From assembly GCA_965221205.1 (NCBI GenBank), contig OZ244870.1:1038065-1102064 (forward strand): a stretch of 64,000 nt of DNA, written 5' to 3'. Within the stretch, counting starts at the first letter, position 1; the number at the start of each line of letters is the position of its first letter. Shown one piece after another: positions 1 through 55,723 of the stretch. The translations under genes and the position numbers were made by a program. The DNA is from a bacterium (GTDB lineage Bacteria > SM23-31). The notes under the pieces are model-generated. The model saw nothing but the letters and a program-made list of their open reading frames with translations. It was not told the DNA's origin and ran no database searches.

Positions 1-55
1 AGGATTGAGTGTCTTACTGTGCCGTGATTTGATCTAACGAAAGGTTCAAACGCTG

Positions 56-2674
56 GTGTCGAACACATTACTGTTCAACGACCTCAAACATTCCGTAAGC
101 GGATGGCGGCGGTGCGGGTATCCTTGTGATGATTACCCGCTGATCGGCTCTATACTCGACTACCAAACGGAAAAGCACGAAGAAAAGCACGAAGACCGTT
201 CAACCCAGAAGTTTCTGCGCGATCCCCAGTTCCTTGCCCTTGAAGTGTACTGGTATGTCCGCATTGTGTTGAAAACCCCTCATATCATAGACCTTTACAA
301 ACATTACTACACGGAAGACAAAAAAGGCTTTTTTGATGCGATTGGCGTTTCCATACCAGGAGACGCTTTGGATTATGTGGAAATAGACGGGGTTATTAAA
401 AAAATCAAGGAAAATGAAGATTTTGTAAAAGAGAAGAAAATTCAAGCCCTGCATGAAGCCGCGAAACTGGGTTATCCAAGCTATATCCTCGCCCTGGCGA
501 TGGGCGCGGGTAAGACCGTGCTGATTGGCGCGATTGTTGCCATCGAATTCGCCATGTCCATGCGTTATCCCGAAGGCGAAATCAGGTTTATGAAAAATGC
601 CCTTGTCTTTGCTCCTGGCACAACCATTATCGAAAGCCTGCGGGAACTCAGCGGTATGCCCTACGAGAAGATTTTACCGCCCGACCTGAACCGTGATTTT
701 CTCGCCAATTTGAAGATTGAGTTTCCGGGCAAGGAAAAAGACATACAGGCACAGAGGGGCAGCAGTTATAACCTGATCGTCACGAATACCGAAAAAATCA
801 GTCTGCGCGCCAGACAGCGAAGCAACCAGGCACGACTGGCTTTTGAGCGCGAGGAAGTGCAGGCGAACCTGCTGCTCCAAAAAATCGCGAGTCTGCCGGG
901 TCTCGGAGTGTTTTCGGACGAAGCGCATCACACATACGGCAATACCTTCGACAAGTTAAAGCGAGTGCGGGAAACGATCAACTACATACACGATGAGCAG
1001 CCAATCGTTGCGGTCGTCAACACAACGGGAACGCCTTATTACAAGAAACAGCTCCTGAAAGAGGTGATTCTCTGGTATGGGCTTGGAGACGGCATCAGCG
1101 ATAACATTCTCAAAGACCTCAATAACGGGATTCACCAATACGACATCGGGGAGCAGTCGGAGCAGGGTGTGTTCCAGGATATCATCACGGTGTTTTTTAG
1201 CAGGTACGGTGATGTGTCGCTTCTCAATGGCGCGAAGGCGAAGATTGCTTTTTACTTCAAGACGCAGGAGCATCTGGAAACTTCCCGCGCCTTTATTGGA
1301 AGGGCAATGGCGGAGATGGGCGAGGATGTCTCCCAGATACTTGTGAACACGCAGAAATCCGGTGTCGCCGAGGTTGATGAATTCAGGAGACTGAACAATC
1401 CGACAAACCAGAAGCGGGTTATCCTGCTGATTGGCAAGGGTGTAGAAGGATGGAACTGTCCAAGCCTGTTTGCATGCGCCCTCATCAAGGAGCAGACGTC
1501 AAGCAGCAACTACGTTTTGCAGGCGGCGACACGATGTTTGCGGCAGGTTCCGGCAAACGCGCATTCGGCGAAGATATTCCTGGATTCCGGCAACGCAAAA
1601 ATTCTTGACAGGCAGCTGCAAGACAACTTCCGCACCGACCTTGACCGACTGAGTGCCGAAGCCGGGGAAAAGGAAACGGTCACCCTGCACATCCTCAAGA
1701 CGCAGCTCCCCACACTGGAAATCACCCGCACCGTGAAAAGAGCGGTCAGAAAGGGAACGCCATACGTGAACATTCACCTGGAAAAACCAACAGCGGAGGG
1801 CCCGCCCCCTATATTGCGCGGCATATTCACGCCCGATTTTAGCGGACCGGGAGAAATACTGATGCCCACGGGCGAAATGAAGGAGCTGCCCGCGGGAGAG
1901 CGCATTGTGGATTGTCATTCCGCCGCCTGGAAAATAGCCTCACGATACCATGTGCCGGTTATGCCGGTCCTTGAACAACTCAAACGTCTTTATCCAAACA
2001 GGGAAATGCCCCACGAGCATTTGTACGGGCTGTTCCGGCAGGTGGAAAAACAGGGAGCGAACTACGAAACAGTGGAAGACAAAATAACCGAAGCGATGGC
2101 ATTGATTCGGGTGCGGGATGAGAACGGAAAGGATAGTTTTGAAAAAGAAAACGATGTGTATGTTCACCGCTTGCGGGTGCTGAAACGGACTCATGACCGA
2201 ATGAAAGATAATGGTCTGTTGGCCGAAAGTGAGGAATATGAGGATAAGCACGATGTGAGTTTCCACTACACTCCCTACAACTTTGACAGCGGGCCTGAAC
2301 GTTCCTTCTTTCGGCAGATTTTGTCCGTGCTCAATGCAGCCCCCGATGATGTGGAGGCGTTTTTGTTCACGGGCGGACTCACAGACCAAAAGAAAACCGA
2401 CTTTCATTTTGAGTATCTCGGCGAGGACAAACGCTACCATCGCTATTTTCCCGATTTTGTGATTGTGAAGAAAACGGGCGAGTTTTATATTATCGAGATT
2501 AAGGCGGAGAGTGAGCGGGGAGATAAAACAGTGGAGGCAAAAGCCAAGGCAGTGGAACGGCTGCGAAATTTGCAGCCGGATAAATTCAAATATCAGGTGG
2601 TCTATACATCAACGACCATAACCCCACAGAACATCAAGCCCGTTACGGGCTGGATAAACGTACAGGAGAATTAA
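56..2674 (+). CDS. res: Type III restriction enzyme Res subunit (SF2 helicase with C-terminal nuclease-like region)
   Basis: 872 aa ORF with GTG start after in-frame stop at 35-37; Walker A-like ALAMGAGKT, DEAH-like VFSDEAHH, C-terminal PD-(D/E)xK-like FPDFVIV..EIKAE; homologous in architecture to the second Res at 33598-36411. Confidence 0.8.
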   Translation: MSNTLLFNDLKHSVSGWRRCGYPCDDYPLIGSILDYQTEKHEEKHEDRSTQKFLRDPQFLALEVYWYVRIVLKTPHIIDLYKHYYTEDKKGFFDAIGVSIPGDALDYVEIDGVIKKIKENEDFVKEKKIQALHEAAKLGYPSYILALAMGAGKTVLIGAIVAIEFAMSMRYPEGEIRFMKNALVFAPGTTIIESLRELSGMPYEKILPPDLNRDFLANLKIEFPGKEKDIQAQRGSSYNLIVTNTEKISLRARQRSNQARLAFEREEVQANLLLQKIASLPGLGVFSDEAHHTYGNTFDKLKRVRETINYIHDEQPIVAVVNTTGTPYYKKQLLKEVILWYGLGDGISDNILKDLNNGIHQYDIGEQSEQGVFQDIITVFFSRYGDVSLLNGAKAKIAFYFKTQEHLETSRAFIGRAMAEMGEDVSQILVNTQKSGVAEVDEFRRLNNPTNQKRVILLIGKGVEGWNCPSLFACALIKEQTSSSNYVLQAATRCLRQVPANAHSAKIFLDSGNAKILDRQLQDNFRTDLDRLSAEAGEKETVTLHILKTQLPTLEITRTVKRAVRKGTPYVNIHLEKPTAEGPPPILRGIFTPDFSGPGEILMPTGEMKELPAGERIVDCHSAAWKIASRYHVPVMPVLEQLKRLYPNREMPHEHLYGLFRQVEKQGANYETVEDKITEAMALIRVRDENGKDSFEKENDVYVHRLRVLKRTHDRMKDNGLLAESEEYEDKHDVSFHYTPYNFDSGPERSFFRQILSVLNAAPDDVEAFLFTGGLTDQKKTDFHFEYLGEDKRYHRYFPDFVIVKKTGEFYIIEIKAESERGDKTVEAKAKAVERLRNLQPDKFKYQVVYTSTTITPQNIKPVTGWINVQEN

Positions 2675-2676
2675 AC

Positions 2677-3066
2677 ATGAAAACGTAAAAGTTATTTATC
2701 AGTCATTCTTGGACGTATTCGGACGACTATGAGCGACTTAAGAAGTTACTATAGGAAAGAAGCTACTTTCATTTCAGAAAATACTCTGTGGAAAGTGATG
2801 AACCTAAAAATAATTGGGAAGAGATAGAACGTAATATAAAGTGGTCTACCGTCGTTGTCGTTATTGCAGGTGTGTATGCCAGTTATAGTTCATCAATAAA
2901 AAGAGAAGTGCGGTTGGCTAAACAAAATTCCAAGCCTACACTCGCTATTATTCCCTGGGGGAGTAACAGGACATCAGATATAAAAAATAAATGTGATGTT
3001 GTTGTCGGAGGGTACACCGACAGCATTGTCTCGGCAATAAAGGAATTGGCAAATGGATCAAGATAG
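2677..3066 (+). pseudogene. TIR-like (DUF1863/ThsB-like) domain protein interrupted by two in-frame stop codons
   Basis: Single reading frame from ATG 2677 to TAG 3064-3066 reads MKT*KLFISHSWTYSDDYERLKKLL*ERSYFHF..VVVVIAGVY..LAIIPWG; in-frame TAA at 2686-2688 and TAG at 2752-2754; FISHSW start and later hydrophobic core resemble TIR-like/ThsB architecture. Confidence 0.45.
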
Positions 3067-3508
3067 ACAGGAGCTTTTGGAAATCTATAAGCTTCACGCC
3101 GAACTTGCGGACAGGGTGAGCCAGAGACGGGAGGGGGCAAACAGGCTTTATGTAAGTCTGCTCGCGGGCATTTTTATTCTCCCTGCCGCTTTTCTAAAAT
3201 ATGGGACGGAAACCATTCCTGATTGGGTTATTGTGCTGGTAGCAGCTATTTTAGGCGGTTTTCTTTTTTTGTCGTGGTGTCTTATTATTCGTTCCTATTA
3301 TCGATTGGATAGGAGGAAATGCAAGGTATTGTGCGAGTTGGAAAAAAAACTTGTCTACCCTTTTTTCAAGCGCGAACGGGAGTTACTGGAAGAAGAAAAA
3401 AATATAAATAAATCTTGGGAGCTTATAGAGATTGAACATTTTCTTCCTTTTGGTTTCTTTATGGTTTTGCTGTACTTGTTTGTGTTTGGTGTCATCTATT
3501 TTTTTTAA
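3053..3508 (+). CDS. Small two-TM membrane protein, SLATT-like effector candidate
   Basis: 151 aa; N-terminal charged helix then two hydrophobic helices (LYVSLLAGIFILPAAFL and WVIVLVAAILGGFLFLSWCLII) plus hydrophobic C-terminus; ATG overlaps the end of the TIR-like ORF by 14 nt. Confidence 0.5.
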   Translation: MDQDRQELLEIYKLHAELADRVSQRREGANRLYVSLLAGIFILPAAFLKYGTETIPDWVIVLVAAILGGFLFLSWCLIIRSYYRLDRRKCKVLCELEKKLVYPFFKRERELLEEEKNINKSWELIEIEHFLPFGFFMVLLYLFVFGVIYFF

Positions 3509-3512
3509 TCAA

Positions 3513-5360
3513 ATGAACCCTCCCCTCAAAATAACCCCAGTAAAAGGCCGTCCGATGCTTCATTGGGTTGGCAAGAAGCCGCTCGATGTTGTCCGGCATT
3601 ATCCCGCGCAGTTGTGTGAAAGTGTTGGCGTTGAGAATCCACCTGTTGAGCCGTCTTATGCGGAATTCATCGAGAGCAACGCCAACCTGCTTTTTCACGG
3701 CGACAACAAGGAAATCCTGTCGTCTCTTTTGATCGCAGGGTTTCGGGGAAAGGTGGATTTAATCTACATCGACCCGCCGTTTGATTCCGGTGCGGATTAT
3801 GTCCGCAAGGTGAGGCTGCGCGGAGAGTCCGAAAGACTCGACGGTCAGGGCCACACTTTTCTGGAACAGGTGCAATACGAGGACATCTGGGCGAACGATA
3901 ACTATCTGCAATTCATGTATGAACGTCTGATTTTGATGCGGGAATTGCTGAGTGACACAGGAAACATCTTTCTGCAAGCTGATGACAAGAAAGGACACTA
4001 CTTGAAGATTCTTCTCGATGAAGTTATGGGAGAGAAAAATTACATCAATGACATTATTTGGCGCAAAGGAAGAGAAGGAGGCGGAGGCACGAAAGTTAAT
4101 CCTCCTCTGCCAACAGAATACCAAAACATCTATCTGTATGCCAAAAAACGCGACTCTCGAAAGTGGAACGCTCCACGCGGTCCCTATAACAAAAGCACTC
4201 TAAGTTCTTTGAAGAAAGATGAGAAGGGATGGTTTTATATGCGCGGTCGGATGGGACGACAGCCAAGACAATGGGAAATTGAAGCAGGCGTTGCGAGAAA
4301 AACTTATGTTAGTGAAAATCAGAACGAGTCAAGAGAGTCAGTTATACAAAGATTAACAACATTGGGAGGAAAGTTTGTCCTAATCGGGGACGTTTGGGAT
4401 TCTTATCTTATCAAAAATTCAACAAAAACCAATTACCCTACAGAGAAACCTGAGGCGTTGCTTGAGATTGCCATAAAATCGGGTACTGATGAAGGTGGAA
4501 TTGTTTTGGACTGCTTTTGCGGTTCCGGCACCACCGCTGCCGTTGCCGAGAAACTGGACCGCCGCTGGATCATGGCGGACATGAACAAGGGAGCGATTCA
4601 GACAACCATCAAAAGGTTGCAGGGTGTTATGGAGAAGAAAAGCAGCGACCTTGTAGAGAAAAACGGGCGCGGGCTTATTCACTATCGGGTGAACAACTAC
4701 GATTACGATGCCGCTGACCAGAATGAACTCAAGAAAATTATCGTTTCCAAATACGGCGTTCAGACAGACCGCAAGGATCTGTTTTTTGACGGAGTGGTTG
4801 GCGACGGGCAACTGGCGAAAATTGTTGACCTGGACAAACCGCTGACGCAACTGGACATTCAGATTATCAAGGATGAAATCGCACAGAACCGACCGGATGA
4901 GATGCGGGATATTACGGTTTTTTGCAACGGCTCGGAACTGGGAATTATGGGAGAACTTGCCAGGGAGAAAAACCCAATCAATACAATCACCGTCCGCGAC
5001 ATTCAACAGGATGGAATGATCACAAACCAGCCCGCCGAGGCAGAGGTTGAGATCAGCAAAAGCGGCGAAAGGGTGAAGGTGAAAATTGTCGATTACATCA
5101 GCCCCGCCATACAGGCCCGGCTGGAGAGTGACCGCACCATTTTTGATGAACGGATTGACGACTTCCGGGCGCAGATTGACTGCGTGCTCATCGACACCGA
5201 TTACAACGGTGAACATTTCAGAATAGTGGAAAGCGACCTGCCGGAGAAAAAAACCGATTTCATCAGGGCTAAGTATGAATTCACGCTGCCCCGTGCTGGC
5301 GCGAAAGTGGCGGTGAAAATCGTGGATATGCTCGGTGAGGAAGTTTTGACGGTCAAATGA
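3513..5360 (+). CDS. mod: Type III DNA methyltransferase Mod (beta-class N6-adenine type)
   Basis: Motif IV IYIDPPFDSGADY precedes motif I LDCFCGSGTT; start taken at ATG 3513 (MNPPLK) just after the stop of the upstream ORF at 3506-3508, rather than the ORF-track start 3432. Confidence 0.8.
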   Translation: MNPPLKITPVKGRPMLHWVGKKPLDVVRHYPAQLCESVGVENPPVEPSYAEFIESNANLLFHGDNKEILSSLLIAGFRGKVDLIYIDPPFDSGADYVRKVRLRGESERLDGQGHTFLEQVQYEDIWANDNYLQFMYERLILMRELLSDTGNIFLQADDKKGHYLKILLDEVMGEKNYINDIIWRKGREGGGGTKVNPPLPTEYQNIYLYAKKRDSRKWNAPRGPYNKSTLSSLKKDEKGWFYMRGRMGRQPRQWEIEAGVARKTYVSENQNESRESVIQRLTTLGGKFVLIGDVWDSYLIKNSTKTNYPTEKPEALLEIAIKSGTDEGGIVLDCFCGSGTTAAVAEKLDRRWIMADMNKGAIQTTIKRLQGVMEKKSSDLVEKNGRGLIHYRVNNYDYDAADQNELKKIIVSKYGVQTDRKDLFFDGVVGDGQLAKIVDLDKPLTQLDIQIIKDEIAQNRPDEMRDITVFCNGSELGIMGELAREKNPINTITVRDIQQDGMITNQPAEAEVEISKSGERVKVKIVDYISPAIQARLESDRTIFDERIDDFRAQIDCVLIDTDYNGEHFRIVESDLPEKKTDFIRAKYEFTLPRAGAKVAVKIVDMLGEEVLTVK

Positions 5361-5834
5361 TTCGGCTCTGTATAGAGATGCCCTAAAACGGTATATGAGA
5401 TATGAATGAAGAAGTTACGAATCACCATGTCTATTGGACATTGTTCTGGTGAAGTGAAAGCACATGCAGGAAAAAAGGTATTCCACACGGTATGCGATCC
5501 AACGAAAAGAAATAAGATATTCATGGAAGGTGAAAATGGGGATAGGATTTTTAATCTTAAATTGAATAGATTTTTAGAAGATAATCTCCAAGATTTTTGT
5601 ACGGAAGCGATTGACTGGCGGGGGGCATGCGGAATTTTGGCTCCATAGTTATACGACTGAATTTTTATTTATCTATATAATTCCCATTTAAATTCAGGGT
5701 AACATTTGTACACATTTAGTCTTTTGGGTCGAATAAGAAAACATTTGATCCGATGTTTTATTCGGGAAATTGGTCACCACATTGGCAGGCAGGAATGAGT
5801 TTAAAAAGCCTGTCCTCACTTTCCATACATAGTC

Positions 5835-33597: not shown

Positions 33598-36411
33598 TCA
33601 AGCGCCGCCAATGCCCGCGTGGCGTGAAAGAATGCTCTGAATATCACCGGGGGCTCTCGATATATCCCCTGCCCAGCGGCCAAAGCCGCCATGCGCGTTG
33701 ACGGCGGTGATCCATTCGTCGAGAAACCGGCGTTTGGTTCGGTCCTGTTCGCTGTCCTGTCCCTTGGTTTCCAACACGAGTATGTCGCCGGACCTGAACC
33801 GGATGAGGAAGTCGGGACGGTACTTCCGCACCACGCCGCGATGGACGTAGAACACTTCGAAGCCCAGGTGATCGTTTTTCACCCAGGCGGCGACCTCGGG
33901 GGCGTGATCGAGGGCAAAGGCTTCCGACGATTCCCAGGTGCTGTCATAGACGCAGAAATTGATATGGCTGCGCGCCGTGGGCTCGCAGGGCCTGCCGGTG
34001 TACCATGTCCCCATGTCGCCGGTTGAACGGATGGGCCGGTCCCGGTCGAACACCGGCTCCAGACTCTCGGTGTTCTCGAAGCGGATGGCTTCCCAGATAT
34101 GCTGGACCACCTTGGTCATGTTGAGCGTGATGATGAGACGGCGCTTGAGATCGTCGCGGAGGAATAGTGCAGGCGTGATGCTGATTCTGTCCGAACGGAT
34201 GAATTGATCGACCAGCCGTACCAGTTGGGCCAGCAGGAATGCTTTGCCTCCCCGCCAGTTCTTTTGCATTTGGTCGTAAACGTCCCGCGCGGTCTCAAAG
34301 ATAATCCGCTGTGTCCGAAACTCCCGCGCCAGATTCTCCAAGTCTATAGCCTCGATCTTCGTCACGTCCGGTTTGCCGGCGACGATTGGGGCAAGCTCCG
34401 CGATTCTTACGGTCCTGCCAACATCGAGTTCCAGGCTTGCCACCTTGTTCCAATCCAGGGAGAGCTGCGGTCGGTATACGTGGTCGATGCGGATCACGTT
34501 CGGCCAAGAGATTTCGAAAGCCGCTTTGCCCGTTACCGGCTCAATAGCGGTCTTTGGCGTTGGCGGCGGTGGAGGGCCGCTCTCTCCACCTTCGTGGGGC
34601 AGAAAAGTGAAGGGCACGCCGAAAATATTGACGTACTCCGGCTCGAACAAACCGTTGTTCGGGTTCACATCGTAAGATGTGCGGCGCAGGCCGCGTCCGA
34701 CGACCTGTTCACAGAGAAGCTGGCTGGTGAACGCGCGGAGGCCCATGATGTGTGTCACGGTCTTGGCGTCCCATCCCTCGGAAAGCATCCCGACGGAGAT
34801 CACATTCTGGATCAGCTCGCCCGTTTTCCCAGGTTGGCCCACGGTGTTCACCTGCGAGCGCAGCAGCTCGGCTTGCTGTTTTTTGGTTAGCTTGCGTGAG
34901 GGGCCGCCGTTCGCAGCTTCTTCGCTCTCGCCAGCGCCGATCTCCGCGATCGGCTCCTCGGCGGCCTCGGCCGCGTCAAGTACCCTTGAGTCGATATGAA
35001 GGGTTCGCGCCGGGTCGCAAAGCTCGCTGATACGGACTCTGCTGTGGTCGAATGCGTACTTGATCCGGGCTGCGGTCTCGGTGCGATTGGCGACGGTGAT
35101 CATCACTGGCGGGGTTTTGGACCCGTCCTTTCTCCATTGCTTAGATGTCTCGCGCCAGTCGAAGCCGAGAAGGCAGTAGCCATTGACCACCAGGTCCGGC
35201 AGCGGTTCTTCGGGCTTGGCCCGCCGGTTTAAGTCGTCCTTGACCTCGGCATCGTTGTAGATGTGGTAGAGGCGGGATTTGTAGGTCGTGACGTCAGGTA
35301 CCGCATCGTCGCGAATCACGACGCGTGGGGTCTTGACCAAACCGGACTCGATGGCGTCGTTCAGGCCGAAGTCGCTCACGATCCAGCCGAACAGCGCCTC
35401 CTCGGAACTCCGTTTACCCGATGGCGCGAAGGGCGTGGCGGAGAAGTCGCAGCAAGCGAGAATGCCCCGCGCCCTGTCGATCCGATCCAGGCCGCCAACC
35501 CACTTGGTCGCTTCCTCGATTTCATCCCTGGCAACACCTTTGACCTTGGATTCGGCGGGAACGCGCCAGGCGTGATGCGCTTCGTCATTGATGACAAGAA
35601 TGTTCCGGGCGTTCGCCAAGTCGCCCAGAACCTCGCGGACATAGGCTTCGTCGCTCTTGGATCTCCGTTTATCTACGCTGCGTTTTCCGGCAATCCTCTC
35701 ATCGGTCTCCCAATTGAGTGCGTGCCAGTTGCGGACCACGACCTTGCCTTGGCGCAGCTTGTCGAACAGGGACGACGGAACGACGTGGAAAGCTTTGTAG
35801 TAGTTCTCCGCATGAGACGGTTCCAAGACGGCCAGACGGTTCTTGACCGTGAGTCCCGGAGCGATAACCAGCACGTTTCGGGCGAATCGCGCATCCTGGG
35901 AATAGGTGACCTTGTTCAGGATATGCCAGGCGATGACCATGGCCATGACGACGGTCTTGCCCGAGCCGGTCGCCATCTTTGCGCACAACCGCCCAATCGG
36001 CCCGCCATCGGAAGGGATGTCAACGCCAATTTTCTCGGCCGCTGACGCTTCGGCAAGCCAGATCAGCGTCTCGACAGCCTCCAGTTGGCAGAAGAAAAAT
36101 CGACGGTTATCGAACTCCTCCGGGTTCGTCCAGTGCTCCAACAGCCGCTTCGTAATTCCCGTGACACCCGGATACCCGGCTCCACGCCACGCCCGTACAC
36201 GCGGACGAATCCGGTTGACCAGGGGAATCTCGACGAAATGGCCCGGATCATCGAACGATCGGGAGCCCTCCGAGGCAATGACGTATCCGGCCGGCCGGCG
36301 GCCTTGCGCACGGTCGAAAAGGCGCGTCTGGCGGTCGTAGCTCCAGTGTTGGCCCGGCTCCTCGTAGGGAGAGTTGATAATCAGGCGATCGATGGTTGTT
36401 TGCGCCATCAT
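33598..36411 (-). CDS. res: Type III restriction enzyme Res subunit
   Basis: Walker A ATGSGKTVV, DEAH box VINDEAHH, helicase C-terminal motifs; start ATG 36411 (MMAQTTIDRLIINSPYEEP) overlaps the hepT stop (ATGA); inside the GC-rich island. Confidence 0.85.
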   Translation of the reverse strand: MMAQTTIDRLIINSPYEEPGQHWSYDRQTRLFDRAQGRRPAGYVIASEGSRSFDDPGHFVEIPLVNRIRPRVRAWRGAGYPGVTGITKRLLEHWTNPEEFDNRRFFFCQLEAVETLIWLAEASAAEKIGVDIPSDGGPIGRLCAKMATGSGKTVVMAMVIAWHILNKVTYSQDARFARNVLVIAPGLTVKNRLAVLEPSHAENYYKAFHVVPSSLFDKLRQGKVVVRNWHALNWETDERIAGKRSVDKRRSKSDEAYVREVLGDLANARNILVINDEAHHAWRVPAESKVKGVARDEIEEATKWVGGLDRIDRARGILACCDFSATPFAPSGKRSSEEALFGWIVSDFGLNDAIESGLVKTPRVVIRDDAVPDVTTYKSRLYHIYNDAEVKDDLNRRAKPEEPLPDLVVNGYCLLGFDWRETSKQWRKDGSKTPPVMITVANRTETAARIKYAFDHSRVRISELCDPARTLHIDSRVLDAAEAAEEPIAEIGAGESEEAANGGPSRKLTKKQQAELLRSQVNTVGQPGKTGELIQNVISVGMLSEGWDAKTVTHIMGLRAFTSQLLCEQVVGRGLRRTSYDVNPNNGLFEPEYVNIFGVPFTFLPHEGGESGPPPPPTPKTAIEPVTGKAAFEISWPNVIRIDHVYRPQLSLDWNKVASLELDVGRTVRIAELAPIVAGKPDVTKIEAIDLENLAREFRTQRIIFETARDVYDQMQKNWRGGKAFLLAQLVRLVDQFIRSDRISITPALFLRDDLKRRLIITLNMTKVVQHIWEAIRFENTESLEPVFDRDRPIRSTGDMGTWYTGRPCEPTARSHINFCVYDSTWESSEAFALDHAPEVAAWVKNDHLGFEVFYVHRGVVRKYRPDFLIRFRSGDILVLETKGQDSEQDRTKRRFLDEWITAVNAHGGFGRWAGDISRAPGDIQSILSRHAGIGGA

Positions 36412-36602
36412 GCAGTCTCCGGTAGCACCAGCGGTTCGATGAGGTTGATGAGACGGGGAATGTCCTGTTGTGCGGTCTTCCACACATGCTTCAGGTCAAC
36501 CTCGAAATAGGCGTGTACGAGGCGATGTCGCATCCCAGCGAACTCCACCGCACCCCGCGCTGCCAGCAGCATGTCGAGCAGACAGGCATCGTCATGCCGC
36601 AT
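36408..36602 (-). CDS. HEPN-domain toxin (HepT/DUF86-like), short form
   Basis: R-x4-H-x-Y motif in GMRHRLVHAYFEVDLKHVW; start overlaps the mntA stop. Confidence 0.55.
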   Translation of the reverse strand: MRHDDACLLDMLLAARGAVEFAGMRHRLVHAYFEVDLKHVWKTAQQDIPRLINLIEPLVLPETA

Positions 36603-36903
36603 AGATCGTCTCGGCGGATTGGAGGATTGCGGCACGGCGAATGTAGTTTCGGCTCTGTTCGACCGCCGTGCGTTCGAACAGGTCTACCTCCCGGCCGAGT
36701 ATCCGAGCCAGATCGGCCTGCATTCGCGCCATGTCCAGAAGTGTGTGGCGCGCTTGTTGCTCGAAACGCACCAGTACATCCACATCGCTTTCCGGTCCGA
36801 AGTCGTCCCGTAGCACGGAACCGAACAGCGACAGTTCGACGATCCGCCAGCGTTTACAAAAGTCGGCTATCTCGTCTCGCGGTGTGTCGATATGTACACT
36901 CAT
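36592..36903 (-). CDS. Nucleotidyltransferase (MntA-type antitoxin)
   Basis: GS-x9-DxD motif LFGSVLRDDFGPESDVDVLV; start taken at internal ATG 36903 immediately after the upstream stop at 36906-36908. Confidence 0.7.
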   Translation of the reverse strand: MSVHIDTPRDEIADFCKRWRIVELSLFGSVLRDDFGPESDVDVLVRFEQQARHTLLDMARMQADLARILGREVDLFERTAVEQSRNYIRRAAILQSAETIYAA

Positions 36904-36905
36904 GC

Positions 36906-37748
36906 CTATAACACTTGGTTCGCGTCGACATTGAAGCCGACACTCTTTAGCTCCCGAATAAGTCTTAGCTTCCAACCATCCGAGCCGTCCAACGGAATGT
37001 AAATGACTCCATCATAGTCCGAGGGCGTCTCTACGTTACCTTTCACCAAAGTGCAGACTCGCTCTCGACCGAGTTTGCCAATGAAGTACCCGAATTCGAA
37101 AATCACGTTCTGTCTCGCCCGTGGCTTTTGATTCTTCTTGTCGTCCGCAAGCGCGCCCACGTCGTCCGGGGTCAGCAGGACCACCGCGAACCCAACTTGC
37201 GCATGTTCCTCAAACTTCTCGATGATCGTGCGGCCCTTATTCGGTTGTTCGTGCAGGATTACCGGTTCAAGATCCAGCCTTTCTAGGAATCTTGCAACCG
37301 TTCTCCGAGCAGATTCGTCGTGGCCATGGATGACGAAAACTCTGTTACTGCTCGATCGTTTGTCGATTCGTTCCGAGTCAAGCGCTGAAATGTCACTTTG
37401 ATCTATGGGTTGCGTTGGCGTCTGGTTTTCATCAGACCAATACTCCTCGATCTCCTCGATCATGGATTCGAGTACTGCGGCCGCTGATTCCAAGCCTTTC
37501 ACATAAACTTCCTGGCGTTCTGACTCAGGCGGCTCAAAGTAGGCAGGGGCAGGAGAAAAACGGATATTTTTGAAGTCTCCAATGTGGGCCGACTTGCTCT
37601 CAAACGTGTTGGTGATAGCGACCTCTGTGTTTCTTTGCCACTTATCAAACTCAGGTGAGCGGTACTTTAGGTTTTTTAATTTGGGTATTGCATCCAATGC
37701 TCTCCGCAGGCGCTCCAGACCCTTGGCTTTTATTGGTCGCGCCATCAC
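36906..37748 (-). CDS. TIR-like nucleotide-binding protein (COG4271/PF10137-like C-terminal domain) with unknown N-terminal domain
   Basis: C-terminal block RVFVIHGHD..FAVVLLTPDD..ARQNVIFEFGYFIGKLGRERV..PSDYDGVIY matches the TIR-like family pattern recalled from memory; start overlaps the Mod stop. Confidence 0.6.
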   Translation of the reverse strand: MMARPIKAKGLERLRRALDAIPKLKNLKYRSPEFDKWQRNTEVAITNTFESKSAHIGDFKNIRFSPAPAYFEPPESERQEVYVKGLESAAAVLESMIEEIEEYWSDENQTPTQPIDQSDISALDSERIDKRSSSNRVFVIHGHDESARRTVARFLERLDLEPVILHEQPNKGRTIIEKFEEHAQVGFAVVLLTPDDVGALADDKKNQKPRARQNVIFEFGYFIGKLGRERVCTLVKGNVETPSDYDGVIYIPLDGSDGWKLRLIRELKSVGFNVDANQVL

Positions 37749-40133
37749 TCCACCTCCACCACTTTTAAGCTCTCGATGCCGCGGTCGTCGACGATCTTGA
37801 CGGTGATGCGCCGGTGTCCGCCGACTTCGAAGGGGAGGGAGGACGTCCCGCGATAGGCCTCAACCAGGTCTGTGTCGATCTCGGCCTTGAGATTCCGGGC
37901 GAGTTTTGCCCAGCCGTCCCTGCTGCCCGCCATGGGAAAAAACACCTGGCGGGGAAACAGGCTGCGCCCGTCATAGTCCGGATCGAGCATCCACATAGCG
38001 ATCTTGTCCGAGCCGCCCGATTCCACGTTGCCGGTCTTGGTGTTGTAATAGTCGAATCCTTGGACCGAGACGCGGAACTTGCCCTGGTCTTCGCCTTCCT
38101 TGATCCGCTCGACTTCCATGTCCGGCTGGCCGATCAGCCAGAAGCTCTCGTTGCTTGTCCGCTTCTTCTTGAGGTCGTCGGTCAGCAAATCGGCGTTCAT
38201 CTGCACTTTTAACAAGGTGGCGCCAGGCCAGCGGGTTTCGTCGATGTCCTTGGGACGCTTCGGGATCGAACTGGAAGGCCGCAAAGACGATAACCTTGGG
38301 TCGTGGGGCAAGACTTTGTGCCTCCTCGATGGCGCGTGCCACCTGCCGCTGCTCCAGCGGTGCATGATCCGGCCCAAACGAGACCACGAGCCGTTCCGGA
38401 TTGCGGGTGGTAGCGGGGTCTTGAAAGCCGTCCGTCCCCGCATCGCCGGGCCGCGTCTCGCCCTCGGCGTGCAGCCATCGGGTTGCGGGCAGCGGTTCCA
38501 GCCGAGCAAATGAGATTCGCTGCCCGTCCTTGCCGCGAATGCCGGTCTTGAACAACTCGTCGCGCCAGTCGCCTTGGCGCACGGTCGGTCCAGTACGCGC
38601 CACGGAGGTGTCTGCCGGCAGTGCCTCGGACTCTTCGATGTCGTCCAGGGGCTTCACCGTTGGCGCGGGAACCGCTTCCACGGTGAACGGTCCGGTGACA
38701 CGGGCTTTGCGCCGGTTGATCTCCGGTTGATCGTAGAGCGTGGTCTCGTTGGGCGGTTCGTCATAGCCCAAAGTCTTCGCCGATACGGTGGCGACGCTGT
38801 GGTAACGAAAACCGGCCCCAACTCCTTCGTCAGGATGGGCCAGTTTGTAGTAGTGATAGTTCGCCGTCATGAGGCGCTGCTTGGCCAAGACTGTCGCGAC
38901 GCGCGATGTGTCGCAGGTGATCCATCTTCTGCCCCATTGCTCGGCGACGTGGGCAGTGGTACCGCTGCCGCAGGTTGGGTCAAAGACCAAATCGCCCGGA
39001 TCGGTGGTCATCAGGATGCAGCGCTGAATCGCCTTGTTAGCGGTCTGGACCACATAGTGCTTGGCACTGGGCGACATTGGTGCTGCCCAGATGTTGTTGA
39101 TTGGTCTCCCCGGAACCTCATCTTCATACCGTTTCCACATCAGTGACGTCTGGTTCCCCAGGGCTTCCAACCGACCTAGTTCGGCGAGTCGGTCTATTCC
39201 CTCTTTGGAAATGCGCCATTGGCTGTCCCTGCTACAACGAAAGACGCGACCGTCATATTCATAGGGTTCGGAGCGCGCAACCGTGGAAACACCCTGCGAT
39301 TCAAGGGGCATACGGCGATAAATGCGCCCGCCCTCCGGCAAGTGCTTGTCTGGGTCGAAGCGTTCTTCGGGGGTGGGTTTACGGCACTGGCCGTCAGGCA
39401 GTTCGACACTCACATATGAACTGAAAAACTCGATCACCTCGGCCCGCGTGAGCGACTCATACAATTGCCGGTATTTCACAAGCCCTCGGTCTCTGGCATA
39501 CCACAACAGATAATCCGCAACTTGGGGCAAGGTCTTAGCAGGACTGTTGCCGGTGGTCGCGTAGGAAATGGTTGCCATCCGGTTCTCTGCGCCGAAGATG
39601 TCGTCCATGACTAGGCCGACGCGGTGGATATTTTCGTCGCCGATCTGCACGAAGACACTGCCGCTCTCATGCAGCAGCTCGCGCGCCAACAGCAGGCGGT
39701 CGCGCAGATAGGCGAGATACGAATGGATGCCGAGTTCCCAGGTATCGCGGAAGGCGCGGATCGTCTCCGGCTCCTGGGTCAGGTCCTCGTCCCTGCCGTC
39801 GGTCACGGTGCGCTGGTTGACGAATGGTTGGAAGTTCGAGCCGTAGCGGATGCCGTAGGGCGGGTCGATGCGCTCATGGACGTGCAGGGATACGGTGGGG
39901 ACTTCGAACGAGGTGTGCTCGTCCTTCCCGGCCCAGACGAGCTGCGGATCCAGGTGCGGATCGTAAGCGTAGGTTGTCTTGCCCGCATCCTTGTCGGTCT
40001 CCGGTGTCACCAATCCGACAGGCGGGTTGTTCACACGCTCCTTGCCAGTGTGCGTGTAGTTTTCAACCTCACGCTTTTTTCTGTTCTTCGGTCCCGCTAT
40101 GTCGTTCCCCTTAACTTCGGTCTCTGTCTCCAA
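37745..40133 (-). pseudogene. mod: Type III DNA methyltransferase Mod, apparent +1 frameshift near 38252
   Basis: ORF 37971-40133 carries DPPY, NIWAAP and FDPTCGSGTT motifs, then turns into Arg-rich nonsense after ..FQFDPEA; ORF 37745-38509 continues in another frame with a Mod-like C-terminus; junction at a GGG run (plus 38252-38254). Confidence 0.7.
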
Positions 40134-54858: not shown

Positions 54859-55723
54859 ATGCAACTTATGAAAGAAATTGTATCGGACATAATATTAGGT
54901 GACTGCTTACAAGAACTTAATAATTTTAAATCAGAAAAATTTGATTTAATTATAACATCTCCTCCTTATGCTGATAGTAGGATGAGTACTTATGGAGGAA
55001 TCAAACCGGATAAATATGTCGAGTGGTTTTTAAAAAGATCATTAGAATTTTATAGGGTGCTTGATGAAAAGGGAACATTTATATTAAATATAAAAGAAAG
55101 AGTTGATAAAGGCGAACGTCATACTTATGTGATAGAATTGATTTTAGAACTAAAGAAACAAGGCTGGTTATGGACTGAGGAGTTTATATGGCACAAAAAA
55201 CTCTTATCCCGGAAAATGGCCGAATCGATTTCGAGATTCTTGGGAAAGATGTTTACAATTTAACAAAAGTAAAAAATTTAATATGTATCAGGATGCAGTA
55301 ATGGTACCAATGGGAAGTTGGGCTGAATCGAGATTAAAAAAATTAAGTGAAACTGATAAAACACGTGATAATTCTAAAGCGGGGAGCGGTTTTGGGAAAA
55401 ATGTATCCAATTGGATTGGAAGGGATATGGTCTATCCAACTAATGTATTACATTTAGCAACAGAAACTGGTAATAAAAATCACAGTGCAGTATTTCCTAA
55501 AACGCTACCTTCTTGGTTTCTAAAATTATTTACTAAAGAAAACGATTTGGTTTTGGATCCATTTGTTGGATCTGGTACAACTTGTAGAGTTACCAGTAAA
55601 TTATTAAGAAATTCGGTAGGTATAGAATTAAATCCAGAATATTACAATATGGCGAAGGGAAAAGTACCATCTTCAAATCTATTATTGCTTGAGAAAAAAG
55701 GTGAATATGGGAGAAATAAATAG
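54859..55723 (+). pseudogene. Beta-class DNA methyltransferase split by a frameshift in an A6 tract
   Basis: ORF 54859-55263 has motif IV ITSPPYA; ORF 55283-55723 has motif I LDPFVGSGTT; the second frame is open back to 55154 and reads ..GTKKNSYPGKWPNRFRDSWE.., so one extra A in the A6 run at 55195-55200 would fuse them. Confidence 0.7.

Follow-up and report, generated by a model that had tools for sequence, protein, structure and literature searches.

A probable Type III-like restriction–modification operon carrying a decayed Thoeris-like TIR+8xMP cassette between res and mod

In Thoeris defence systems of types II, V and VII a TIR protein produces a signal that acts through a membrane effector (TM-Macro, DUF2270/ThsF and SLATT/ThsH; bioRxiv 10.64898/2025.12.03.692087). 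The same survey lists a '3TM' class with about 100 occurrences in its Table S1, placed among the 'additional putative effectors', for which the column 'Selected for experimental verification' is blank among the rows listed. Separately, defence genes have been found nested within Hma, BREX, DISARM and Type I restriction–modification (R-M) systems (Payne et al., bioRxiv 10.1101/2024.01.29.577857), TgvAB is embedded in a Type I R-M system of Vibrio cholerae (PMC11411939), and R-M systems are enriched and laterally transferred in sponge symbionts (PMC8163846). Here we describe a locus at the start of a 64 000-nucleotide stretch of the bacterial contig OZ244870.1 (the whole stretch being referred to below as the window), whose source bacterium is a probable sponge symbiont. 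We favour, with moderate confidence, the reading that this locus is a Type III-like R-M operon in res-then-mod order that carries a decayed Thoeris-like cassette, a TIR gene followed by a gene for an 8xMP-family membrane protein, in the gap between its two subunits.

The window locus and the state of its genes

Four tightly packed genes, all on the + strand, lie within window positions 1–5400, namely res, a TIR-like frame, a gene encoding a 151-amino-acid (aa) protein and mod. The features are as follows:

56..2674, + strand: res, Type III-like restriction subunit, 872 aa, GTG start; apparently intact
2677..3066, + strand: TIR pseudogene, ThsB-family, subtype TIRb; two in-frame stops, normal stop codon lost
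2686..2688, + strand: first premature stop, TAA, codon 4 of the TIR frame
2752..2754, + strand: second premature stop, TAG, codon 26 of the TIR frame; Glu in intact TIRb
3053..3508, + strand: gene for an 8xMP-family membrane protein, 151 aa; open reading frame (ORF) intact, C-terminal half degenerate; predicted cassette effector
3513..5360, + strand: mod, Type III-like β-class N6-adenine DNA methyltransferase, 615 aa, ATG start; apparently intact
4044..4489, + strand: variable target-recognition region of mod; differs between alleles (mosaic)

The ATG of the TIR frame (2677) lies 2 nt past the res stop, the 151-aa ORF opens with an ATG inside the TIR frame, the two sharing 14 nt, as for an adjacent effector gene in the same operon, and the mod ATG (3513) begins 4 nt past the stop of the 151-aa ORF. 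An earlier note, made from the sequence alone, had described this layout, and its coordinates, tight packing and res and mod flanks were confirmed, but the TIR-like ORF that it placed 3 nt after the res stop, although it does begin with an ATG there, is interrupted at codons 4 and 26 and is therefore not open.

Read with X at the stops, the TIR frame matched ThsB_TIR in Pfam (PF08937, 3.9e-11) and ThsB in PADLOC (3e-7), so that profile search bore out the TIR-like character proposed for this gene, which is nevertheless a pseudogene. The longest intact ORF in the frame (2788–3066, 92 aa, GTG start) is without the N-terminal FISHSW strand. Intact 125-aa TIRb homologues were found in the related loci L052 (85% identical to the window) and L053 (74%), and in both of them the positions of the window stops, residues 4 and 26, are Tyr and Glu respectively; the TIR homologues of L050 and L005 likewise have TAT (Tyr) at codon 4 where the window reads TAA. 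At the 3' end of the gene, TAATG in L050 and L005 is replaced by AAATG in the window, whose normal stop is lost, and the GWNT of intact TIRb has changed to GGYT. The Glu of the WI..EI column, presumably the catalytic residue of ThsB, is retained by every aligned relative and also by the window frame, which reads SIKREV here. A missing Trp (SKW to SSS) and short loops were considered as further signs of decay and rejected, being conserved traits of intact TIRb (L052, L053). An intact ThsB-family TIR gene, the hallmark sought for Thoeris, is thus absent from the window and present in L052, L053 and L056.

Could the two stops be artefactual or read through, and the TIR gene of the window functional? 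Several related loci do come from long-read metagenome assemblies with split genes (L002, and the mod genes of L056/L057). The 431-nt TIR region with both stops reads the same, letter for letter, in three assemblies made independently of one another from different data sets, namely the window, L001 (Logan ERR13605531) and L002 (ENA ERZ25067264), and the stops are therefore real rather than read errors. Both are substitutions, not indels; the normal stop of the gene is lost too, and the partner 8xMP gene independently shows decay. Recoding or read-through was also rejected, as TAA and TAG terminate neighbouring genes. Altogether we regard a functional TIR gene in the window as extremely improbable.

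The 151-aa protein matched the Pfam family 8xMP (PF24838) at 5.2e-25 (88.3 bits against a cut-off of 30, profile positions 1–134 of 136). A total of 1080 homologues were found, and all 27 of those aligned matched PF24838. Membership of the SLATT families, which had been suggested for this protein, was rejected, as neither the window protein nor any of the 27 homologues matched a SLATT model even at E ≤ 1, and three hydrophobic segments (residues about 30–50, 53–82 and 124–151) were found rather than the two transmembrane helices first proposed; the broader expectation of a small multi-pass membrane protein beside the TIR gene held. An octameric assembly is implied by the family name. In the literature covered, nothing was found under '8xMP', 'octameric membrane protein' or 'PF24838'.

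Although its ORF is intact, the window 8xMP gene is probably a remnant, judging from its departures from conserved positions. It shows 14 deviations at the 75 columns that are at least 90% conserved among 120 homologues (median 1, 95th percentile 7), including R83Y, Q84R, N86D, G88R, W109R and Y121S, and its branch in the tree is long, whereas the alleles of sister genomes all keep the canonical RSYRQLNSGKF, FFKREWELL and YWKL motifs. Relative to L052, dN/dS was 0.15 for residues 1–62 and 1.0 for residues 64–148 (dN 0.32). Since this dN exceeds the dS of the flanking genes (0.07–0.13), import of a divergent allele is possible for the C-terminal half, and it is uncertain whether neutral drift alone lies behind the divergence.

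Res and Mod give a different picture. Judged by its motifs, Res is a superfamily 2 (SF2) helicase with a C-terminal PD-(D/E)xK nuclease, with GAGKT at 150, DEAH at 288 and QAATR at 489 (helicase motifs I, II and VI) and PDF...EIK at 799–816. Its Pfam matches were to ResIII, at a marginal level (1.2e-5, 25.7 bits against a cut-off of 22.5), and to a TnsA-like endonuclease (4e-4, residues 787–837); NCBIfam BPTD_3080 scored far under its cut-off. Res homologues numbered 2959 at E ≤ 1e-10, the best 120 of the 2959 all being at least 61% identical, and a search of metagenome contigs with the Res alignment found nothing. Mod matched N6_N4_Mtase in Pfam (5.6e-43) and, as its best PADLOC match, MTase_III (1.3e-57), and the PDB entry closest to it is the EcoP15I Mod subunit (4zcf_A, 3e-21). 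The N6_N4_Mtase, ThsB_TIR and 8xMP matches lie well beyond what chance would give. In its translation, motif IV (IDPPF) stands ahead of motif I (FCGSGTT) with the variable region 4044–4489 between them, features by which it classifies as a β-class N6-adenine methyltransferase with a central target-recognition region. Nucleotide homology of mod to L050, L051 and all more distant homologues stops at about 3960–4060 and restarts at about 4430–4510.

Between the window and the sister genome L052, dN/dS was 0.26 for Res and 0.16 for Mod, and Res departs at only 5 of 387 conserved columns (family median 8). These values, set beside those of 8xMP, indicate that Res and Mod are under constraint and the C-terminal half of 8xMP is not, and the Res–Mod pair looks maintained in the window. 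The R-M system alone is thus likely to work there, the TIR gene being dead and the membrane gene drifted. With one partner a pseudogene and the other degenerate, the window copy cannot be the working composite defence unit proposed earlier. For annotation of the window, the consequence is that the TIR gene should be entered as a pseudogene and the membrane gene as a probable remnant.

Across four related genomes the flanking genes are about 95% identical in nucleotide sequence, and the locus itself takes the following forms:

window: Res intact, TIRb dead, 8xMP divergent, Mod intact
L052: Res, TIRa, 8xMP pseudogene, duplicated Res 3' end, intact TIRb, frameshifted 8xMP, Mod
L050: Res without its first 493 residues; tandem duplication as in L052; intact TIR–8xMP–Mod
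L051: insertion sequence (IS) in place of Res and TIR

The tandem duplication (L050:6624–8001 and L052:8613–9954) comprises the Res 3' end (residues 822–872), TIR and 8xMP, and its upstream 8xMP copy is frameshifted. Nucleotide homology between the window and L050 breaks precisely at the TIR core (2738–3014) and at the Mod variable region, which points to allele swapping. The differing broken versions in sister genomes show that such modules are gained, duplicated and lost quickly.

The cassette and its neighbours in other genomes

A scan of the genome collection with the 8xMP alignment gave 43 loci, and a TIR homologue lies directly upstream of the 8xMP gene in 33 of them, so that the pairing of the two genes, as first proposed, is conserved. 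From record titles and bin names we take these loci to belong mostly to metagenome-assembled genomes (MAGs) of sponge symbionts, one bin being apparently coral-derived. The taxa include Poribacteria, SAR202/Dehalococcoidia, Candidatus Synechococcus spongiarum, Latescibacteria and Nitrospirales, and further Acidobacteria, Dadabacteria, Rhodobacteraceae and Spirochaetes. Almost all occurrences of the close 8xMP subfamily and of the Res family were in MAGs of sponge-associated bacteria from about ten phyla, and Res identities of 61–79% across phyla suggest extensive lateral transfer of the whole unit within holobionts. The presence of the four-gene unit across many phyla of mostly sponge-associated symbionts offers a concrete case of defence-gene exchange in a host-associated community.

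The cassette also occurs without this Res–Mod pair, in L004 and in most of the 43 loci. On plasmid p4 of Novosphingobium sp. ES2-1 an annotated TIR gene lies directly upstream of an 8xMP homologue, with Fic and HEPN genes nearby. Distant 8xMP homologues (33–41% identical) were found on plasmids of cultured bacteria and archaea, and viral contigs yielded no 8xMP homologue at all. On the Leptolyngbya boryana plasmid pLBX (L059:4574–6450) a distant 8xMP (38% identical) follows a 449-aa hypothetical protein, not a small TIR, so that other partners are conceivable for the wider family.

The TIR of L046, which adjoins the 8xMP protein P0095, is present verbatim in Table S1 of the Thoeris survey (bioRxiv 10.64898/2025.12.03.692087) with the putative effector '3TM'. 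The published type IV ThsB of E. coli 328, as given in Table S1, shares 65% identity with the TIRa of L056, and the cassette TIR falls within survey clusters 2734565194 and 2556961318, alongside the signal-producing ThsB of types IV, VII and VIII. Two TIR subtypes, TIRa (about 135 aa, SKW motif) and TIRb (125 aa, SSS/SPS), can share one locus, a pairing that resembles the multi-ThsB arrangement of Thoeris loci.

Within the Res–Mod family the four-gene arrangement recurs in L003, L005, L050, L052, L053 and L056/57, which are symbiont MAGs of several phyla. The earlier note had named inserts that match neither TIR-like nor SLATT families, and that do not recur in other genomes, as what would speak against it; a TIR match was found and the arrangement recurs widely. 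Loci beyond the window's own lineage are organized as follows:

L056/L057: Res864–TIR136–8xMP150–Mod with overlapping junctions; intact archetype, mod split in both assemblies
L053: Res, TIRa, TIRb, truncated 8xMP, IS1595 and other genes, Mod; 6.3-Mb genome
L005 (Latescibacteria): Res, TIR, [duplication, PIN-like gene pair (judged from translation), transposase], 8xMP, Mod
L003/L047/L048 (Nitrospirales): Res, 335–341-aa TIR_2/Big_1 protein, ThsB C-terminus remnant, 8xMP, Mod
L055: Res, PDC-M34A and PD-Lambda-3_B/HEPN-like genes, Mod
L054: Res, Mod, nothing between
L058: Mod, Res (canonical order), no cargo

The res-before-mod order, which had been thought unusual, is native to this family, as it surrounds an empty gap in L054, but it is not universal (L058). 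Among four Res homologues chosen regardless of 8xMP, two carried the cassette, one other cargo and one nothing, on which basis we regard the res–mod gap as a variable cargo slot, within a small census of a few Res–Mod loci inspected. Such a defined slot can be mined for defence genes, and PDC-M34A/HEPN-like, TIR_2–Big_1 and CAP12-TIR with MNT/HEPN cargo have already been seen.

In L003 (697–2290) and also in L047 and L048, a TIR_2 and Big_1-like protein (PADLOC PDC-S66, 7e-12) replaces the ThsB-like TIR, and the C-terminus of the old TIR (NTDSIVDAMRE) persists, fused in frame upstream of the 8xMP start. The cargo of L055 (8632–9874; Res 73% identical) consists of DUF5343/PDC-M34A (3.8e-29) and Hypoth_Ymh/PD-Lambda-3_B/HEPN-like (2.2e-15) genes. 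In L056 (9465–11537) and L057 (3967–5855) Res is identical and mod is split at different positions (167 + 512 aa and 254 + 374 aa), which reflects either assembly error or variable frameshifting; several of the related loci are long-read metagenome assemblies, in which some frameshifts may be errors.

The cassette was also found inside other defence systems. In L044 (4–10370) the order is BrxC (1.8e-257), TIR, 8xMP and PglX (E = 0), followed by a Ppl-like gene, and in five further loci among the 43 the cassette directly follows BrxC-family genes. In L036 (4142–12983) it stands between HmaA (5.8e-207) and HmaB (5.5e-109), together with a 294-aa protein downstream of 8xMP, and in L011 and L030 it follows HmaA-like helicases; the 294-aa protein, present downstream of the cassette in L030, L036 and L037, had no Pfam or PADLOC match. 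Type IIG/DrmMI-like methylase-nucleases lie within three ORFs of the cassette in eight of the 43 loci. In the tree, 8xMP sequences cluster partly by host system, suggesting long association and co-transfer. The cassette therefore has the features expected of an embedded defence, that is, same-strand cargo between host genes, with host and cargo also found apart.

A second Type III-like R-M locus (33598–40133, minus strand) lies in the window, with cargo that includes a TIR gene between mod and res:

40133..37971 and 38509..37745, minus strand: Mod, PADLOC MTase_III 1e-105; apparently split into two frames
37748..36906, minus strand: CAP12/Pycsar-type TIR protein, 280 aa, Pfam PF10137 2e-42, PADLOC PDC-S35 2e-91; start overlaps the mod stop
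36975..36592, minus strand: MNT-like ORF, by eye from the translation
36635..36408, minus strand: HEPN/DUF86-like ORF, by eye from the translation
36483..33598, minus strand: Res, 961 aa, ResIII 8.5e-9

An 11-bp tandem duplication (CCGGTTGATCT x1.9) lies at 38712–38732, inside this second mod gene near its frame change; it was rejected as the cause of the frameshift, since the gene still does not read as one ORF once a copy is deleted. Elsewhere in the window, a weak methyltransferase-like match to Mod residues 298–358 (34% identity, E 2e-4) was detected on the + strand at 55451–55633, and an Rfam scan over the whole window gave no match.

These neighbourhoods could be read to mean that TIR modules are specifically wired to methylation-based restriction, the res–mod, brxC–pglX and hmaA–hmaB gaps being dedicated docking slots and the cassette a PrrC-like guard that fires, killing the cell, when a phage anti-restriction protein disables Res/Mod, BREX or Hma. 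If the slots were of this kind, the TIR gene between mod and res at both window loci would be the rule and not a coincidence. In favour of a guard, three different methyltransferase-based systems enclose the cassette, which shares their strand and in many instances has start and stop codons that overlap, the Type IIG/DrmMI-like genes stand beside it in eight further loci, the membrane-protein sequences follow the host system in part, and PrrC embedded in EcoprrI provides a precedent (10.1101/2024.01.29.577857). No such host system was recognized beside the cassette in roughly half of the 43 loci, however; the homologous pair on the Novosphingobium plasmid adjoins Fic and HEPN genes, members of the Res–Mod family lack the cassette in L054 and L058 and hold other cargo in L055, and three unrelated host systems would require three different sensing interfaces. 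We therefore consider the guard unlikely, and dedicated docking slots equally so. As cassette and R-M system are separable, we prefer nesting and co-transfer to an obligatory functional coupling.

Proposed mechanism and the evidence weighed against it

According to the reading that we favour, the four genes would be co-transcribed in intact relatives such as L056. The TIR protein would sense phage infection and turn NAD+ into an ADP-ribose-derived signal, this signal would bind a conserved basic and aromatic cytoplasmic face of an oligomeric 8xMP, and 8xMP would then breach the membrane and abort the infection. Both the signalling and the membrane disruption are proposed on the model of the Thoeris systems with membrane effectors (types II, V and VII) and in view of the conserved basic and aromatic cytoplasmic residues of 8xMP. 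Coming after DNA restriction, the cassette would be the second line of defence, and it would spread together with the R-M genes as these pass horizontally between symbionts, most of them sponge-associated.

Within the pair, the roles might also be the reverse, with the TIR protein killing by NAD+ depletion and 8xMP serving as a membrane sensor or anchor that activates it, not as the effector. Many bacterial TIRs are NADase effectors, and the second Type III-like locus of the window carries an effector TIR of the CAP12/Pycsar type. The Thoeris survey itself cautions that, in types not yet verified, the TIR may act as an effector by depleting NAD+ instead of producing a signal (10.64898/2025.12.03.692087). 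The cassette TIR belongs, on the other hand, to the ThsB family and to the clusters that hold signal-producing ThsB (types IV, VII and VIII), and the effectors of types II, V and VII are small multi-pass proteins that oligomerize, so that we hold an effector TIR to be rather improbable and retain the signal-producing TIR with an 8xMP effector.

Even less probable, in our view very much so, is that the pair stabilizes the R-M genes in the manner of a toxin–antitoxin (TA) system, with a membrane toxin and a TIR antidote or the reverse. Small membrane toxins are common, and R-M operons attract TA pairs, such as the MNT/HEPN pair of the second window locus and the PIN-like pair of L005 (from translation). 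The TIR gene is broken beside an intact 8xMP ORF in the window, whereas in L052 and L053 an intact TIR stands beside a frameshifted or truncated 8xMP. As genomes thus survive the breakage of either gene while the other is intact, neither gene seems toxic alone and neither partner appears to be needed to neutralize the other, which argues against toxin and antidote.

Several points weigh against the interpretation of the locus as a Type III-like operon with a Thoeris-like cassette. Res had no PADLOC REase_III match, no PDB relative by sequence and no similarity to EcoP15I Res, and is too divergent for a firm assignment, so that 'Type III-like' denotes a likeness and not proven membership. A promoter and terminator scan of the locus, whose scope leaves out Bacteroidota-type promoters, gave results at chance level, which lends no support to co-transcription. 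The 8xMP protein has no PDB relative by sequence and no significant PDB fold match, and its AlphaFold2 (AF2) monomer model, all-helical with four helices, reached only a moderate pLDDT of 67.6; its ligand-binding face is accordingly conjecture. The TIR+3TM/8xMP pair is a putative Thoeris-like configuration, and the survey's warning applies to it. Finally, the cassette is damaged or rearranged in most of the Res–Mod loci inspected (the window, L003, L005 and L050–L053), which could mean that it is often dispensable or costly.

Should the intact relatives work as proposed, they would constitute a naturally packaged test case for a putative Thoeris type with a new membrane effector family, 8xMP, and Type III-like R-M systems would join the hosts known for 'defence nested in defence'.

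Comparison with known systems

The closest described counterpart of the cassette is the putative Thoeris configuration 'TIR + 3TM' (Yirmiya et al. 2025, bioRxiv 10.64898/2025.12.03.692087, Table S1, Fig. 1C), which comprises the same pair in the same TIR-then-membrane order and whose TIR, like that of the cassette, falls in the same clusters as validated ThsB. It differs in being catalogued only, and no placement in Type III R-M systems is given there, whereas the window copy is a pseudogene remnant. The earlier note did not recognize the arrangement as described; the pair itself is listed and the nesting of defence genes is established, but in the limited literature covered we found no report of a Thoeris-like cassette, or of any TIR gene, between the res and mod genes of a Type III system.

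The cassette shares with Thoeris types II, V and VII a small ThsB-type TIR adjoining an oligomerizing multi-pass membrane protein and, presumably, the logic of a signal followed by a membrane breach. It differs from them in its effector family, as 8xMP has no Macro, DUF2270 or SLATT match.

The host operon resembles EcoP15I-like Type III R-M systems in its β-class Mod with a central variable region, in a Res that combines helicase motifs with a C-terminal PD-(D/E)xK nuclease, and in having no gene for a specificity subunit. Its Res is not detectably related to that of EcoP15I, and the order is res–mod in most members inspected, with mod–res in L058. As in the embedded systems described previously, same-strand cargo lies between host genes and varies in a fixed slot, and BREX and Hma hosts are common to both; the difference is that TIR+8xMP is not among the tested HEC systems and that the host here is a Type III-like res–mod pair.

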